From: an uncultured Chthonomonadaceae bacterium
GTDB lineage: Bacteria; Armatimonadota; Chthonomonadetes; Chthonomonadales; Chthonomonadaceae
Assembly (NCBI GenBank): GCA_963835065.1
Contig: CAWIEK010000049.1
Location: forward strand, 288,001 to 352,000
DNA: 64,000 nt
Reading direction: 5' to 3'
The notes under the pieces were generated by a model. That model had not been told where the DNA came from and did not search any database. It saw only the letters and a list, made by a program, of their open reading frames with translations. Shown one piece after another: positions 30,373-36,413 of this stretch. Made by a program: the position numbers and the translations under genes. Each line of letters begins with the position of its first letter. The first letter of the stretch is position 1.

Positions 30373-31077
30373 TTGGAACCTGAAAACAATTGCCCGCATC
30401 CCTGCAACTTTCGCCTGACCCGTGTTCTGGATCGGGGATGGGGAGAAATGGCCTTTGAATATCGCTGGAACTCCACGTCCGCTTTATCCCACAACTCTTC
30501 CGACGACGCTCTTGATCTGAACCACTGTTTTCTATACGAACTGACCACGTATGCCGGTAATGTGGGAACTTATCAAGGCGGCTATTTTGTCGCGCCAAAT
30601 CCTCCTTTTGCGGAGTGGTGGTTTCGTGACCCGACAGACGGGCGAACCGCTCCGGTTGCGCTCGGCTGCTTCGACGCATCGGCAGGATGGGCATGGGATC
30701 GGCACAAAATGGGCGGCAAGTTCGTCATGCCTGACCAATCTCCTGACGGCCCCGCCCTATCGCCCAAACCGCCCTATACCATCGTGGCAACGCAACAGTA
30801 CCGCTTTTATTGCGAGCGGTGCGGTATGGACGCGCTCGTTCCCGGCTCTCATTGCGGCCCACATGCCATCACGCGAACCTTTGCGCCCCTCAGCAACAAT
30901 CTTAACAGCAACAATCTTAACGATGTGCCGGCTACCTTTCAAAAAGATTTCCTGCTTCGCTCTTACTATACCCTTTGGCGGTACACGCTGCAAAAACATG
31001 GGCATCAGGCTTTTCTTGACCTCAATGCGCTAGGCAGTTATGTGGATGATAGTACGCATCTTGGCTACGGCCCCTAG
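30373..31077 (+). CDS. Hypothetical protein (Cys/His/Trp-rich)
   Basis: 234-aa ORF filling the gap in the same orientation as its neighbours; no family recognised. Confidence 0.55.
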   Translation: MEPENNCPHPCNFRLTRVLDRGWGEMAFEYRWNSTSALSHNSSDDALDLNHCFLYELTTYAGNVGTYQGGYFVAPNPPFAEWWFRDPTDGRTAPVALGCFDASAGWAWDRHKMGGKFVMPDQSPDGPALSPKPPYTIVATQQYRFYCERCGMDALVPGSHCGPHAITRTFAPLSNNLNSNNLNDVPATFQKDFLLRSYYTLWRYTLQKHGHQAFLDLNALGSYVDDSTHLGYGP

Positions 31078-31250
31078 TGACAAACTCTTCCACTGCGCAA
31101 TAATTTTCTACAAAAAATAAATTCCTGCCGGTAGCCTGCTTCTGAGTTGTCCGTCTTGAACACGTGAACCGCAAGCCCGGCCTTTGCGTCAGCCTCTTGT
31201 TTCTGTATTTTTATTTTTGTATTTTGGCTCCTTTTCAGGAGGTTCGTTCA

Positions 31251-32273
31251 TTGAGTGACAACCTGCAACGCAAATTTGTGGGCGGCGAGGCGCTGTCACA
31301 ATCGCTGGAACGCCTTGTCGAAAGCGTGTCTCCCGCCCTGCGCCGTCGCTTACAGCAAAAAGGTGTCGCGGAAGAAGAACTGGAAGACTTGCACATCGAA
31401 GCCCAGGTACGCCTGTTTGCAGCGCTGAAACGGCGGAGCCGACAGGATGAAAGCAGCCAGATCAACATTGAGGACCCAACGCGCTACGCCCATGCCGTCG
31501 CGGACACTGTTTTTGACGATTATCTGCGCCGAATGTATCCCAACCGCTGTCGGTTAAAGCGCCGCGTCCTCTATCTGCTGGACAATACGCAAACCGAAAA
31601 AAAAGTATTCGCGCGCTGGAAACATCGTACCGCCTGGATCGCCGGGTTTACCCGATGGCAGCAGCACGCTTTCCGGCCAAGCGCCCGCTACCATGCCTTT
31701 TGTAATCGCCCGGATGTGTTTTGCCAACAGGAATTAGACGATCAGGAGCCTGAAAAAATGCCCCTCCACATCCTTATGGCACATCTGTTCCGATGGCTCG
31801 GCACGCCCGTCGAATTGGAAGAACTCATTTCGCATCTTATCAAACTGCAAAAGATTACGGAAACGCGCGCCCTGCCCATTGAAGATATGGTAGAAAAAAC
31901 CGGCATGGACATGGACCATTGGCTTCCGCCCTCGCCCGAAGACGTGTCCGCCCGCGTCCTAGATTCTATAGAAGGGGAAACCTTTCGCGCCCATTTGTGG
32001 CAGTTACTTTGCAGCCTTCCTGTTCGGCAGCGTCACGCGCTCCTGCTCGGCATGAGTTCGGATGAACTGCTGCTTACGGGTACGATGAGCGACATTGCGG
32101 ACTTGCTTGAACTGCCGCTTGCCGCGCTGTCTGACTGCTGGCCCGACTTGCCCTTTTCCGACACGCAGCTCGCGCAGCGCCTGGAACTCACGCCCAAGCA
32201 AGTTTCCAATCTGCGCAAATGCGCCCGCCAAAAAATCGCGCGAAACCTGAAATGCGGAACCGAACAACCATGA
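31251..32273 (+). CDS. Extended ECF-like sigma-70 family factor
   Basis: AGGAGG RBS and TTG start; region 2-like EDLHIEAQVRL...YAHAVADTVFDDYLRR; region 4-like LPVRQRHALLL...DTQLAQRLELTPKQVSNLRKCAR; long central insert. Confidence 0.75.
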   Translation: MSDNLQRKFVGGEALSQSLERLVESVSPALRRRLQQKGVAEEELEDLHIEAQVRLFAALKRRSRQDESSQINIEDPTRYAHAVADTVFDDYLRRMYPNRCRLKRRVLYLLDNTQTEKKVFARWKHRTAWIAGFTRWQQHAFRPSARYHAFCNRPDVFCQQELDDQEPEKMPLHILMAHLFRWLGTPVELEELISHLIKLQKITETRALPIEDMVEKTGMDMDHWLPPSPEDVSARVLDSIEGETFRAHLWQLLCSLPVRQRHALLLGMSSDELLLTGTMSDIADLLELPLAALSDCWPDLPFSDTQLAQRLELTPKQVSNLRKCARQKIARNLKCGTEQP

Positions 32274-33958
32274 ATGCCTGCCCCACGCCGGAAACAATTG
32301 CCCGCTACCGCAGCGGAACCCTCAACGACACAGAGGAGATACGCGCTTTTGACGAGCATCTGCGCGATTGCCCCACCTGCCGTAAATCATTGCGGCAGCA
32401 AACCGCTTACGCCGCCATTCACCTTGCCGACAGCATCACGCCACAGCCCGATGAACCCCTGCATCCCGCAGACGCGCAAATGCTTGCTTATGTGCGCGGC
32501 CAATCGGACGACGTAGAACGTGAAATCATCGCTGCTCACTTATCTTTATGCCGCCAATGCCGGGCCGATGTTGCGGAACTTACCGCTTTCCACGAGAAAA
32601 TGCGTGTTTCCGGCTACGGCCATGTAGAGGAACGGCTCACCCAACCCACCCTGCGCGAACGCTGCGGAACCGCCTTCCATGCCGCTTTCCACGTCCTCAG
32701 CGTACGCAGCCTGCAATCCGCATTTAGTTGGTGGAACCGCTTAACTCTGGGCTTCCGGTTGGCGCTTGGGCTTGTTCTCGGCGTCCTGACAGGCATCTTC
32801 CTGCATGGGCACACAGGCAGCCTGAACGGTGTTGAAAGCGTTTTTCTCTGGCTGTTACAAAATCTTGCCACGCCCTTCATTTTTGTCGCTCTCGTCCGTA
32901 CTCTCATGGATGCCGATGTCAACGGGCGTATGGCCCGCCGCCTTGCCTACCTTGCTTTATCGAACACGATTGTCGCCGTGTGCATCGGCCTGATCGTCGG
33001 CAGGGTCGCGTACCTGCGGCCTGACGAGCATTTATCAAAGCCGGGTTACGATCCCCTACTGAACAACCTGTCTGACCAGGCGCAGCGTGGACTGCTCCAG
33101 CCACTTCTTGACAACGGCATCCTTGTCGGCGTTCTGTTTGCTATCGTCATCGGATTAGCCTTGCGCATGGTACGGCAAGACGCCATAAAAGCGCAGCAGA
33201 AAGATTATCTGGTCATCAGTCTCCTGCTTGCCTCAGTCTATCGCAGCCTGACCATTATATTGGATTGGGTTATTTCTCTTGTTCCCATCGCCGTATTCGC
33301 CGTAGTTGCCCACAAGGTAGGCGAAAGAACCTGGACGGACATCCAAATCCTGGTTAAGTTCAGCGCCTACGTGGTACTTGCGCTGTGTCTGCAAACTTTG
33401 TTCTATCTGCTTCGCCTGTGGTTCCGGGCCGCCATGCCTCCGAAGCAATTTATACGCGGAGCCTGGAAAGCCGTGCTGACGGCGTTTTCCACGGCAAGTT
33501 CCGCCGCCACCTTGCCCATCACCTACACCAGCGCCCTTGAAGGCGTAGGGGTTCGGGAGCGTTCCGCCGGATTAGGCGTACTCGTCGGCACACAGCTCAA
33601 CCGAGACGGTACAGCCCTGTACGAAGCCATCACGCCCGTTTTCATTGCCCGTGCGATTGGCCTTCCTCTTGATCCGATGCAGCAGTTGACCGTATTGGGC
33701 ATGGCGATTATAGCCTCCATTGCCGCGCCCGGCGTTCCCCAGGCCGGCCTGATTACCATGATGATTGTGTTTAAGGCTATCCATCTGGATCCCGTGTACA
33801 TTGTCTGGCTGCTGCCTCTCGATTGGCTGTTGGATCGCTTCCGCACCGCCGTCAACGTCTTAGGGGCCATGACCATGACCTGCCTGCTGGACCGGCGCAA
33901 TATCCCGTATGACAGCGAGGAACATGAGGACACCTTAGAGCCTGAAATCCTCAACTGA
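32270..33958 (+). CDS. Tandem zf-HC2 (ZAS) anti-sigma domains fused to a dicarboxylate/amino acid:cation symporter (DAACS) domain
   Basis: ATGA overlap with the sigma gene; HLRDCPTC and HLSLCRQC; AFSTASSAATLP, NRDGT, GVPQAG, DWLLDRFRTAVNV. Confidence 0.88.
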   Translation: MNACPTPETIARYRSGTLNDTEEIRAFDEHLRDCPTCRKSLRQQTAYAAIHLADSITPQPDEPLHPADAQMLAYVRGQSDDVEREIIAAHLSLCRQCRADVAELTAFHEKMRVSGYGHVEERLTQPTLRERCGTAFHAAFHVLSVRSLQSAFSWWNRLTLGFRLALGLVLGVLTGIFLHGHTGSLNGVESVFLWLLQNLATPFIFVALVRTLMDADVNGRMARRLAYLALSNTIVAVCIGLIVGRVAYLRPDEHLSKPGYDPLLNNLSDQAQRGLLQPLLDNGILVGVLFAIVIGLALRMVRQDAIKAQQKDYLVISLLLASVYRSLTIILDWVISLVPIAVFAVVAHKVGERTWTDIQILVKFSAYVVLALCLQTLFYLLRLWFRAAMPPKQFIRGAWKAVLTAFSTASSAATLPITYTSALEGVGVRERSAGLGVLVGTQLNRDGTALYEAITPVFIARAIGLPLDPMQQLTVLGMAIIASIAAPGVPQAGLITMMIVFKAIHLDPVYIVWLLPLDWLLDRFRTAVNVLGAMTMTCLLDRRNIPYDSEEHEDTLEPEILN

Positions 33959-34058
33959 CCGTCAATGTTGAACCGTGTTCACCGTCGCTTAATGAAAACG
34001 CTGCGTCTCCGAACACCAAACACCTAATACCCAACACCCTTCTTTTAAGGAGTTTATC

Positions 34059-35507
34059 ATGGCGCACACTCCGCACGGCATACTGCCCCTCGAACCCGCA
34101 AACGGTTTTTGGGCGGCCTACAACCGAATTCCCCTCTTTGTCCGCATCCTCGTTGCCATGACGCTAGGCATTATCGCGGGCGAATTGATACCGCCCGCCA
34201 CCATGACGCAGTATGCTCCCTCCTTAAAACTGGTCAGCGACACGATCCTGCAACTGCTGAAACTGCTCGCCACGCCGCTCATCTTTATCGCCGTCGTCCA
34301 CGCCATTTATAAAGCGCAGGCCAGTGGCAAAACCGCAAGCCGTCTTGTGTTCCTGTTGATGCGCAATACAGTTGTCGCCATTTTCATCGGCCTGCTTGTC
34401 GCCAACGTTTTACAGCCGGGAAGGTGGGTACATGCCGCGCCGTCCGGCGACAAAATAGCGACGAAATCTTCCAATTTTCTGCTTGATTTGGTCGGTAAAA
34501 TCCCGGCCAATCTCGTAGACCCGCTTCAGCATAATGAGATTATCTCTATTCTCATCTTAGCGGTCGCGTTCGGCGTCGCCATGCGCCTTGTGCGCGATCA
34601 GCAAGCCCGCGACGGCAAATCCGGCATCAACACCATCGGCGATTTGCTGGATACCGCCTTCAGCATCGTCATGGTCATGTTGCACTGGATTTTCGCCATC
34701 GTGCCTCTTGCTGTCTTCACGGTTGTTACCCGGCAGGTGGGAACCAACGGCGTCAAGCCGCTCATCGGCCTACTGGGGTTTGTCATCGCGGTGGTACTGG
34801 CGCTTGCGTTGCAGGCCGGATGGTATCTCGCAAACGTCCGTTTCCAGTCATGGGTAACGCCCGGACGGTTCCTCCGCGGAGCCTCAGATGCCCTCGTGAT
34901 GGCGTTTTCAACCGCCAGTTCCGCCGCAACCCTACCCGTTACCTATGCGGCTATGAAAGATAAAATCGGGGTACGGGAGGAATCCGCCGGTTTGGGAGTG
35001 ATGGTTGGTGGCACATTCAATCACGACGGCACGGCGCTCTACGAGGCAATGGCCGCCCTGTTCGTCTGTCAGATGCTCGGACAGCATCTAAATTGGGGAG
35101 AACAAATCAAAGTAGTCATCATGTCCGTGTTCGCGTCGGTCGGCGCGGCGGGCATCCCGGAAGCGGGCTTGGTCACGATGCTGGCCGTTTTCTCCGCCGT
35201 CAACCTTCCCACCGAGTACATCGCCCTGTTGCTGCCTCTCGACTGGTTCCTCGACCGCTGCCGCACCGCCATCAACGTCATGGGCGATATGAGCGTCACC
35301 TGCATGATTGACGGCAAAATCGCCCCTCCGAGTGAGGCGACAGCCGGACTCATCTTGCAACACCGGAGATTCACGCCGAAATACTGTCACAGCATTGAAG
35401 CGCATCATCTACTCTTAGTCAATGCGTATGCCGCTGCTCCTCAGGGCTGCTTTGAAACTGAACGATCATACAACCCAATTTGCGCCTGCATGTCGTTGTA
35501 CAATTGA
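34059..35507 (+). CDS. Dicarboxylate/amino acid:cation symporter (DAACS, GltP/GltT-like)
   Basis: AAGGAG RBS; AFSTASSAATLP, NHDGT, GIPEAG, DWFLDRCRTAINVMGD. The C-terminal tail runs into the convergent gene, so the 3' end is uncertain. Confidence 0.92.
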   Translation: MAHTPHGILPLEPANGFWAAYNRIPLFVRILVAMTLGIIAGELIPPATMTQYAPSLKLVSDTILQLLKLLATPLIFIAVVHAIYKAQASGKTASRLVFLLMRNTVVAIFIGLLVANVLQPGRWVHAAPSGDKIATKSSNFLLDLVGKIPANLVDPLQHNEIISILILAVAFGVAMRLVRDQQARDGKSGINTIGDLLDTAFSIVMVMLHWIFAIVPLAVFTVVTRQVGTNGVKPLIGLLGFVIAVVLALALQAGWYLANVRFQSWVTPGRFLRGASDALVMAFSTASSAATLPVTYAAMKDKIGVREESAGLGVMVGGTFNHDGTALYEAMAALFVCQMLGQHLNWGEQIKVVIMSVFASVGAAGIPEAGLVTMLAVFSAVNLPTEYIALLLPLDWFLDRCRTAINVMGDMSVTCMIDGKIAPPSEATAGLILQHRRFTPKYCHSIEAHHLLLVNAYAAAPQGCFETERSYNPICACMSLYN

Positions 35508-36076
35508 TCAAAGGTAACACAAAACACTTTATTAGAGTCAATTAGCACTCTATCAACTCGCCAGCGCAGTCGCTCTGCTTCACCCGGTTCCAGCAGATTG
35601 TGTCGTCCAATCAGCATCAATCCAGAGAATGTTGCATGACGCCCGAACAAGCGTTCAAATTCATTCGTCTGGCGCACATCGCTCACCTTGTAAAACCAGT
35701 CTATGATTTGACTGAAACCATGCTCAAATCGTGGTGACCAATCTCGCGTTGCCTTTTTGCCTGAGCGATCAAAGACACTTCTGGCCGAAGCGTCTTCCAC
35801 TTCAACAAGGCAGTACGCCTTGTTACTCGAATCGCCGATTACCAGGTCACAGCTAAAGTCTCCAGACAAAGACAACTCCGAAGCAACGCAATCCACTTCT
35901 ATGATGCCCGGCACATATAAGTTCGTCAGCGCCGTCAAATGTTTGCAAGCCTTGAAAAGTGGCAGCAGATGTTTGCGTTCCTCCGGTTCTGCTACCGTAT
36001 CCAGAAGCGTCTTCAATGCCTTGACTTCTTGCTGACAAGCCGTAAGATCGAAGGAGTAATGGTCTAAACTTTTCAT
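35441..36076 (-). CDS. Shedu-type anti-phage nuclease (DUF4263, PD-(D/E)XK)
   Basis: EE.....F, EL.L.GDFSCDLVIGD, LVEVEDA, FEHGFSQIIDW, LIGR, TFDQL pattern. Confidence 0.78.
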   Translation of the reverse strand: MKSLDHYSFDLTACQQEVKALKTLLDTVAEPEERKHLLPLFKACKHLTALTNLYVPGIIEVDCVASELSLSGDFSCDLVIGDSSNKAYCLVEVEDASARSVFDRSGKKATRDWSPRFEHGFSQIIDWFYKVSDVRQTNEFERLFGRHATFSGLMLIGRHNLLEPGEAERLRWRVDRVLIDSNKVFCVTFDQLYNDMQAQIGLYDRSVSKQP

Positions 36077-36369
36077 CCGTTTCCACTTGTCTGCGCGGCA
36101 ATTGCTGTCTGAAACGCATCTATTCTGGCTTGAGGAATAATGTCTAACACTTCCAACCCTTCCGACGATTTTTCGAAGAAGACACGCAGACTGGGACCGA
36201 CTGGAATCATATAGATGCCCTCCGGCTTTATCCACACCTGCACATCCGGGATTTTCTCCCATTCTTCCTGCGCCTGATCCACCTTCTTGACAGCCTGCTC
36301 TATTTGTTTGCGTATCCCCGGCTTCAGTGTATTGATCTGGATATAAGCCCGGTTGGTAAAGCTGATCAT
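36073..36369 (-). CDS. RelE/ParE-like small protein
   Basis: GAGGAGG RBS; ISFTNRA..QI..L, IY.I.VG.SLRVFF, I/V.DI pattern; ATGA-coupled to the Shedu-like gene. Confidence 0.6.
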   Translation of the reverse strand: MISFTNRAYIQINTLKPGIRKQIEQAVKKVDQAQEEWEKIPDVQVWIKPEGIYMIPVGPSLRVFFEKSSEGLEVLDIIPQARIDAFQTAIAAQTSGNG

Positions 36370-36413
36370 AATGCCTCCTCTCGCCTCGTTACAAGCAATA
36401 CCTGACAATATAA

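Follow-up and report, generated by a model that had tools for sequence, protein, structure and literature searches.

Organization of the Locus

The DNA analyzed here is a stretch of 64,000 nt (referred to as the window) from an uncultured Chthonomonadaceae bacterium (contig CAWIEK010000049.1, positions 288,001 to 352,000). Around 31251-35507, it carries a three-gene module that encodes an atypical sigma factor of the extracytoplasmic function (ECF) type, a protein in which two zinc anti-sigma (ZAS) domains precede a complete DAACS/SLC1 transporter domain, and an unfused DAACS transporter. The fused transporter domain keeps its substrate pocket and lacks a residue central to sodium coupling, a combination that points to an ion-uncoupled receptor acting on the sigma factor. 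The features are as follows:

31130..31155, + strand: candidate ECF-type promoter GGTAGC-N16-CGTC, predicted from motif conservation to be read by the adjacent sigma (autoregulation)
31237..31242, + strand: predicted ribosome-binding site AGGAGG (from sequence), before the sigma start TTG at 31251
31251..32273, + strand: atypical ECF-type sigma gene, 340 aa, TTG start (open reading frame (ORF), profile and model)
32270..33958, + strand: gene of the 562-aa fusion protein, with a pair of zinc anti-sigma domains, a linker and a complete DAACS/SLC1 domain (ORF, Pfam and relatives)
32279..32380, + strand: zinc anti-sigma motif 1 (C4, H30, C34, C37; aligned fused N-termini)
32462..32560, + strand: zinc anti-sigma motif 2 (H65, H90, C94, C97; aligned N-termini, Pfam zf-HC2)
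32561..32749, + strand: helical linker into the first transmembrane (TM) helix, including the domain join (gap-free contig; low-confidence model)
32750..33895, + strand: DAACS/SLC1 domain with intact substrate pocket (Pfam SDF, solved SLC1 matches)
33602..33604, + strand: Arg445, N-R-DGT, replacing the NMDGT methionine (GltPh M311; alignment)
33866..33868, + strand: Ala533 at the Na1 aspartate position (GltPh D405), aspartate lost (alignment)
34047..34052, + strand: ribosome-binding site AAGGAG of the unfused DAACS (from sequence)
34059..35507, + strand: DAACS transporter without fusion, 482 aa, with NHDGT and the Na1 aspartate (Pfam SDF alone, 322 bits)

The initial annotation of this DNA described most of this layout correctly. 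The TGA of the sigma gene (32271-32273) overlaps the ATG of the fusion gene (32270-32272) as ATGA, and the 562-aa ORF is open throughout, with no stop between its zinc and DAACS parts. Both tandem zinc motifs, HLRDCPTC and HLSLCRQC, are found, each with a fourth ligand upstream (C4 and H65, respectively). The second DAACS begins 100 nt past the fusion stop behind its own ribosome-binding site; it shares 38% identity with the fused domain over 421 aa. Only the end of the module, first placed at 35340, needed correction, as this last ORF stops at 35507.

The fusion is genuine and not an assembly artefact. A chimeric join at 32600-32760 had been considered, and this region is crossed without a gap by assembled contigs that belong to relatives and are distinct from the reads of the window itself. 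One of them, from another run, covers the join at 32588-32959 with 42 substitutions and no gap, and a second contig covers 31842-32737, also without gaps. The fusion is matched over its full length in the genomes G001, G020, and G032, and in a frameshifted copy in the error-rich G002. Since the rate of non-synonymous change (dN) is well below that of synonymous change (dS) in close pairs, both halves of the fusion are under purifying selection; the values of dN and dS for G032 and G065 are 0.10/0.82 in the ZAS part and 0.09/1.01 in the DAACS part. The sigma gene likewise has a dN well below dS.

The Fused SLC1 Domain

The Pfam SDF profile (PF00375) matches residues 161-542 of the fusion protein over profile positions 2-386 of 387 (254.6 bits), and the domain matches 45 solved SLC1 sequences with a best E-value of 4e-40. 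The comparison of residues covered 122 unfused relatives and 22 fused domains, the latter falling into 17 clusters at 90% and sharing as little as 39% identity, after removal of duplicates and one fragment. GltPh positions were assigned by motif, with support from an alignment with a solved homologue; for residues outside 92, 93, 279, 310-312, 397, 401, and 405, the numbering is the one that we take to apply to GltPh. A structure model of the fusion, built from a 5-row alignment, has a predicted local distance difference test (pLDDT) score of 51.8 and was not used for site geometry.

The substrate pocket is conserved in full. All 12 tested pocket columns are invariant in the 22 fused copies, against a background of 52 invariant columns of 284 (18%). 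The fused copies retain the serine motif of helical hairpin 1 (HP1), the DGT motif, the G-x-P-x-x-G motif of HP2, and the D-x-x-R-T-x-x-N motif of TM8. Because the equivalents of D394, R397, T398, and N401 are kept, aspartate or glutamate is the probable ligand.

Two positions tied to ion coupling are changed throughout. The Na1 aspartate (D405) is present in all 122 unfused relatives and in none of the fused domains, which have His (seven), Thr (seven), Gly (five), Ser (two), or Ala (one) instead. The position of M311 is Arg in 22/22 fused domains and in 0/122 unfused relatives (His in 79, Asn in 43). Proline occupies the A353 position in every fused domain versus 4 of the 122 relatives, and the N310 position is Ser in four of the fused domains. 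As reported in the accessible part of a study on GltPh, D405 provides the sole side chain of the Na1 site, the D405N variant binds aspartate without Na+ with a dissociation constant of 11 uM, and M311 wedges the HP2 gate (10.1101/2021.11.29.470416).

Residue signatures have been proposed for the coupling ions of SLC1 proteins. In the portion available to us of PMC12668577, Na+-coupled members are marked by [S/T]92-93, N310, [M/S]311, [D/E]312, and [D/E]405, and H+-coupled members by a hydrophobic residue at 92, L311, and N405; ion-uncoupled clades, possibly still transporting, also exist. The fused domains depart from the Na+ signature at 311 (Arg in 22/22) and at 405 (Asp or Glu in 0/22), and from the H+ signature at 92 (Asn), 311 (Arg), and 405 (His, Thr, Gly, Ser, or Ala). 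The unfused relatives keep D405 but have His or Asn at 311 and Asn at 92, and thus match the Na+ signature only partly.

The fused domain diverges faster than its unfused partner. Between G000 and G001, identity is 52% for the fused domain against 77% for the partner, and the same direction is seen in eight of nine regions, in a comparison in which five of the seven partner pairings rest on contigs of equal length. The scaffold helices TM4-5 are the most relaxed regions of the fused domain (55-62% versus 81% in the partners). Retention of the pocket together with loss of coupling features is the pattern expected of a receptor. The initial annotation had regarded the transporter as the sensor of the anti-sigma; this part of its claim is favored by the residue pattern over an ordinary coupled transporter, whereas a duplication of the neighboring gene and a role in inducing it, proposed at the same time, found no support in the form given (see below).

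The Zinc Anti-Sigma Domains and the Sigma Factor

The N-terminus of an SLC1 protein is cytoplasmic, and the zinc domains would therefore tether the sigma factor at the membrane. Pfam zf-HC2 matches two stretches of the 562-aa protein (29.4 bits; cut-off, 22.2). In motif 1, HxxxCxxC is found in 19 of 20 aligned fused N-termini and the first ligand in 18, the remaining N-termini being truncated; in motif 2, all four ligands are present in 20/20. The signature of class I ZAS proteins is Hx3Cx2C, according to the available text of PMC7406223. Both domains have this signature with an upstream His or Cys ligand, and the gene lies directly downstream of a co-inherited sigma gene.

The sigma factor consists of sigma2 (residues ~6-95), an insert of ~140 aa, and sigma4 (~237-340). 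The TIGR02937 profile matches it at an E-value of 7e-10, with 38.8 bits being under the cut-off of 42.9, and a Pfam scan gave no Sigma70_r2 or Sigma70_r4 match. In its structure model (pLDDT 81.3), sigma2 superposes on that of SigR (Z 9.8, root-mean-square deviation (rmsd) 1.9, 78 aligned residues) and sigma4 on region 4 of sigmaE (Z 8.5, rmsd 1.8, 69 aligned residues). The top 27 rows of the structural comparison are all sigma factors, with Z-scores that are modest for helical folds. A Foldseek search with the model returned nothing at E<=0.001, its weak matches being nearly all sigma factors. The protein thus looks like an ECF sigma, since sigma2 and sigma4 are present in the model, yet an atypical one to which no ECF group is assigned, as the usual short linker and the curated cut-off are not matched.

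This sigma belongs to a wider family, with matches in 15 of 42 genomes of the Chthonomonadaceae. Look-alike sigma clusters are commonest in Acidobacteriota and carry only the automatic name "hypothetical protein". In a tree of 28 sigmas, all 10 DAACS-linked ones fall on one side of a branch (support 99/98). At 12 of 18 other loci, the same zinc motifs follow the sigma and lead into other C-terminal domains; none were detected at the other six. In these other members, the anti-sigma mostly carries an outside domain behind a single predicted TM helix, with a weak DUF928 match in one of seven scanned. We infer a single event in which the transporter took the place of the usual outside domain. The zf-HC2 plus SDF architecture, for which the initial annotation suggested a search, recurs in relatives, always behind the same sigma clade where upstream DNA is seen. 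At every such locus except in one frameshift-rich assembly, the sigma gene next to the fusion is undamaged and shows purifying selection.

TPR-CHAT neighbors were confirmed by Pfam at four checked loci of long sigmas with zinc pairs. Long-linker sigmas with a zinc pair and varied C-terminal domains occur at L029-L033, L036-L038, and L107-L130, in one case next to a NACHT protein, and this family itself seems to be undescribed. A paralogous long sigma with a double-zinc anti-sigma also lies outside the window at L068:3236-8839 (G000 C49), downstream of a TPR-CHAT gene; this anti-sigma is apparently split by a frameshift ahead of its outside domain.

Distribution of the Fusion and Its Relation to the Unfused Transporter

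The module has a narrow range among soil bacteria: two genera and one unplaced lineage. The fusion is found in 8 of the 42 family genomes and 2 of 23 genera, namely in 3/3 genomes of the window's genus and 5/5 of the genus g19 (one copy being split over two contigs). A phylum sample of 301 genomes confines it to these two genera. The best 120 database matches include 13 fused proteins, of which P0014 and P0016 come from an unplaced third lineage. A scan of GTDB with a back-translated pattern gave 15 matches; seven have the arginine codon, all in Chthonomonadales or Chthonomonadaceae records, and five of these have both zinc motifs in frame, one is frameshifted, and one is cut at a contig end. 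The other eight are an artefact of the pattern, namely unfused transporters from other phyla with a serine codon and no zinc motifs. Metagenome matches are the fusion in 4/4 cases, one of them cut. No longer fused forms appeared in the search made for them, which is weak evidence, and for the fusion the ESM Atlas returned only plain SDF clusters at 0.80. The searches for fusions were word-indexed, so that distant fusions could escape them.

Unfused DAACS proteins with N-S-DGT (L048-L050, L052, L053, L059-L061) occur in Myxococcota, Deltaproteobacteria, and Methylococcaceae. The two Methylococcaceae copies sit behind sensor-like genes.

No DAACS other than the fused and neighboring copies was found in the window's genome. 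An unfused DAACS is adjacent to the module in G000, G001, G002, and G020, which is 4 of the 10 loci with enough downstream DNA, and is absent from the module flank in G032, G064, G065, L063, L064, and L065 (the last three being close kin). A conventional transporter is kept alongside the fusion in G000, G001, G002, G020, and G032, the G032 copy lying elsewhere in the genome. The fused domain had been interpreted as a duplicate of its neighbor. When 32 of the 144 rows were put to approximately unbiased (AU) tests, a clade of the fused domains with either type of neighboring transporter was rejected (p 5e-5 and 0.008, with a long-branch caveat), and with it a recent duplication. The fused and neighboring domains would thus be old paralogues or xenologues rather than recent tandem copies. 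In a tree without outgroup, the fused domains form one side of a branch.

The 100 nt that separate the fusion from the unfused transporter contain no terminator-like site, so induction of the adjacent transporter by read-through is possible, and the transporter is likely co-transcribed with the module.

The unfused transporter of the window is longer (482 aa) than the partner proteins, five of six of which have 436-451 aa and one 475 aa; contigs of two other runs have indels at 35338-35353. Length and indels together suggest a variable tail. At L021:5039-7302 in G001, two genes are convergent with the unfused transporter; we take them to be a dipeptide epimerase and a DUF1611 protein.

Candidate Promoter and Predicted Targets

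The motif GGTAGC-N16-CGT(C/T) lies upstream of the sigma gene in G000, G001, and G002, with the same ends and 16-nt spacing and unrelated spacer sequences. In the g19-type loci, it lies 16-17 nt ahead of the fused gene in 8/8 cases (six with at most one mismatch, and two with AGTAGA, recognized by eye). It is also found before dacB in 3/3 cases, two of which score low on the promoter matrix, which was trained on nine module sites only.

As a predicted target, a locus of a membrane protein and a flotillin is better conserved than the downstream transporter. We presume that the membrane-protein gene, which has no family match, is NfeD-like. The matrix score at this locus is 13.2-22 in 8/8 module genomes and at most 9.5 in 22 module-less genomes. 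Before the membrane-protein gene itself, with 30 of 37 loci examined, it is 13.2-22 in seven of the eight module genomes and at most 7.3 in the 22 others; in the eighth, G001, the motif stands before the adjacent flotillin-like gene instead. As the locus was picked after matches in G000, G001, and G032, five genomes are real tests. At L172 and L174 (in the module-less G029 and G008), GAAAC..CGTC with similar spacing was seen by eye upstream of the same locus; it resembles what we assume to be the consensus of SigW-type promoters.

Induction of the downstream transporter had been proposed as the job of the sigma factor. This is not borne out: the transporter is adjacent at only 4 of 10 loci, and none of the six unfused transporter genes has a candidate promoter within 300 nt upstream. 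Having no such motif of its own, it could be reached solely by read-through from the module promoter.

A SigW-like ECF gene (L066:2844-3464, G000 C45) is present in 42/42 family genomes, and the motif lies upstream of it only in the window's genus, which suggests a sigma cascade there. As an autoregulatory promoter of this SigW-like ECF across the family, the motif was rejected, since of 30 loci only two, from the window's genus, have it. In G002, one run (L026:10495-15354) holds the gene of a DcuC-like transporter together with a second unfused DAACS gene, a TIGR04222 gene, and the gene after it. The DcuC and TIGR04222 genes of G000 lie apart, on separate contigs, and each has GGTAGC-N16-CGTY.

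A Proposed Mechanism and Its Alternatives

The reading to which we give somewhat better than even credence is that the fusion is a membrane receptor for an acidic amino acid, bound in the absence of the normal ion coupling, and that it holds and then releases the upstream ECF sigma. The zinc pair would hold the sigma factor at the membrane, and the uncoupled SLC1 domain would bind aspartate, glutamate, or a similar acid. Occupancy of the pocket would shift the transport domain or expose the linker, freeing (or locking) the sigma factor, so that either the ligand or its absence could be the activator. The free sigma factor would read GGTAGC-N16-CGTC and transcribe its own operon and the membrane-protein/flotillin operon, and the true transporter would be induced by read-through where it is adjacent. 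The fusion would have originated in an anti-sigma of the wider family, whose single TM helix and outside domain gave way to a DAACS gene. A stricter version, for which the chances seem slightly under even, sees in the fusion an SLC1 elevator remade as a ligand-gated receptor with direct control of a sigma factor: with D405 lost, the Arg in the NMDGT loop perhaps serves as a built-in cation, and occupancy alone would move the transport domain and free the sigma factor from the tandem zinc head.

Several points weigh against these proposals. The Na3 residues N232, T233, and D446 are nearly all kept in the fused domains (N444 is Ser in 4 of the 22), and loss of D405 falls short of proof of lost transport, given the uncoupled clades. 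In G063, G064, and G065 (73-86% complete), the fusion is the only DAACS found, which fits a working transporter. With a distant outgroup, the tree is rooted inside the fused group, so that the fused domains are not one clade; this is probably long-branch attraction. A genome-wide scan gave 19 motif matches versus 20, 10, and 22 for shifted-spacer controls, that is, no excess, and raw family-wide pattern counts do not separate module from non-module genomes. Six of the nine training sites can also be read as a TAGnnT housekeeping -10 box. Given the kinship of the two module genera, a single event may underlie the promoter correlation, and the reader of the motif could be some other lineage-specific sigma factor. 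The DcuC and TIGR04222 genes failed as conserved targets, with the motif in G000 and not in G002. Finally, the conserved predicted targets are membrane and envelope genes, not genes of amino-acid metabolism.

The best-placed alternative, which we nevertheless consider unlikely, is a true transceptor, that is, an ion-uncoupled facilitator or exchanger in which flux, or a stressed or de-energized membrane state, controls the sigma factor instead of simple occupancy. Retention of all gating and pocket motifs agrees with this, as do the uncoupled SLC1 transporters described in the accessible text of PMC12668577, the three incomplete genomes with no other DAACS, and the membrane and envelope nature of the predicted flotillin, dacB, and SigW-like targets. 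However, a long charged Arg is fixed in 22/22 fused domains at the M311 position that wedges HP2, and five genomes retain a conventional transporter with the fusion. In addition, signaling did not need transport in a study of CbrA chimeras, as far as its available part reports (PMC5715377).

Less probable again is that the DAACS domain is a mere multi-pass anchor, or a reporter of misfolding or proteolysis, with envelope stress cleaving the linker as in RsiW and no amino acid being sensed. It fits this view that related anti-sigmas continue from the same zinc pair into just one TM helix, that the predicted targets look like an envelope-stress set, and that the TM4-5 scaffold helices are the most relaxed. 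An anchor, however, needs neither 12/12 invariant pocket positions at 39% overall identity nor a fixed Arg in TM7.

We regard it as quite improbable that the zinc domains regulate the transporter as a zinc- or redox-sensing head, with the sigma gene adjacent only by history. The sigma factor does score under its family cut-offs, but it stays intact and selected beside the fusion, with the single frameshift-rich exception, and the order of the same sigma family and the same zinc motifs recurs with other C-termini at 12 of 18 other loci. An assembly chimera, a recent chance fusion, or a pseudogene has a negligible chance despite the frameshifted G002 copy: an independent contig crosses the join, full or partial fused copies form 17 clusters, dN is far below dS, and the frameshifts of G002 also affect its sigma, unfused transporter, and flotillin genes, while intact proteins share the 90% cluster of its fragment.

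Neighboring Genes

The module is placed behind an alcohol dehydrogenase gene; module-less genomes also have this gene, beside dacB. Between it and the sigma gene lies an ORF of 234 aa (30373-31077, + strand) without a family match; similar DNA is found in G002 and in a contig of another run, and not in G001. On the other side, a Shedu SduA-like nuclease gene (35441-36262, - strand; Pfam SduA_C 85 bits, PADLOC SduA E-value 6e-74) is convergent with the unfused transporter gene and overlaps its final 67 nt. Upstream of the Shedu-like gene is an ORF of 111 aa (36073-36408, - strand) with a weak, below-cut-off match of the ParE/RelE type. There is possibly a small defense island between the transporter gene and metH.

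Comparison with Known Systems

Literature searches for an anti-sigma fused to a DAACS protein returned nothing relevant; subscription journals and most supplements were outside their scope. The consulted part of the ECF reclassification (PMC7826278) has no transporter-fusion group of this type, and the available portions of PMC7406223 and PMC8103513 contain nothing on transporter fusions. We regard the module as a genuine variant of ECF control that has not been described so far, and whose molecular signature is specific and testable.

The closest regulatory relatives are the class I ZAS/ECF pairs RsiW-SigW, RslA-SigL, and RsrA-SigR, which share Hx3Cx2C, an anti-sigma gene directly behind the sigma gene, and a membrane-tethered N-terminal zinc domain; the candidate -35/-10 promoter ending in CGTC, if autoregulated, would be a further likeness. 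The module differs in having two tandem zinc domains, a sigma factor with an insert of ~140 aa that scores under the ECF model cut-offs, and a complete secondary transporter in place of the single TM helix and outside sensor. The anti-sigmas of 82 ECF groups have one helix, and at most six helices are listed, in the part of PMC7826278 that we consulted. Among long-sigma loci, those with TPR-CHAT genes share the sigma family and the zinc pair with the module. Where examined, their anti-sigmas mostly combine a single predicted TM helix with an outside domain, and no CHAT gene was seen at the fusion loci. The nearest studied CHAT-linked pair is reportedly DdvS/DdvA.

On the transporter side, the whole domain aligns with GltPh, GltTk, and the EAAT proteins, with the HP1, DGT, HP2, and TM8 motifs kept. 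Unlike these proteins, the fusion has no Na1 aspartate, has Arg at M311 and Pro at A353, and carries N-terminal anti-sigma domains. DAACS transporters are already known in transcriptional signaling from DctA-DcuS of E. coli and DctA-DctS of B. subtilis, and the transport activity of DctA is seemingly not required for its part in signaling, as stated in the accessible text of PMC6978683. DctA, however, is a separate working transporter paired with a histidine kinase, whereas here the transporter domain is fused, its coupling sites are altered, and the output would be a sigma factor. In CbrA/CrbS (SLC5-STAC-histidine kinase), a whole secondary transporter and a signaling domain share one polypeptide, as described in the available part of PMC5715377. 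These proteins have the SLC5 fold, a STAC domain, and a C-terminal signaling part with kinase output; the fusion has the SLC1 fold, an anti-sigma, and no STAC domain.

In membrane anti-sigmas, the usual sensor is an outside domain connected by one helix; in this fusion, a whole secondary transporter takes that place. If the proposed mechanism is true, the transporter-based sensing of DctA-DcuS and CbrA/CrbS would extend to the control of sigma factors, and the fusion would represent a new class of anti-sigma sensor. As naturally uncoupled SLC1 variants, the fused domains would differ at the two GltPh residues that have been studied most, and would be a natural experiment that parts ligand binding from ion coupling in the EAAT fold. 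With a predicted promoter and ligand class, the module also offers a first handle on the long-linker sigma family.

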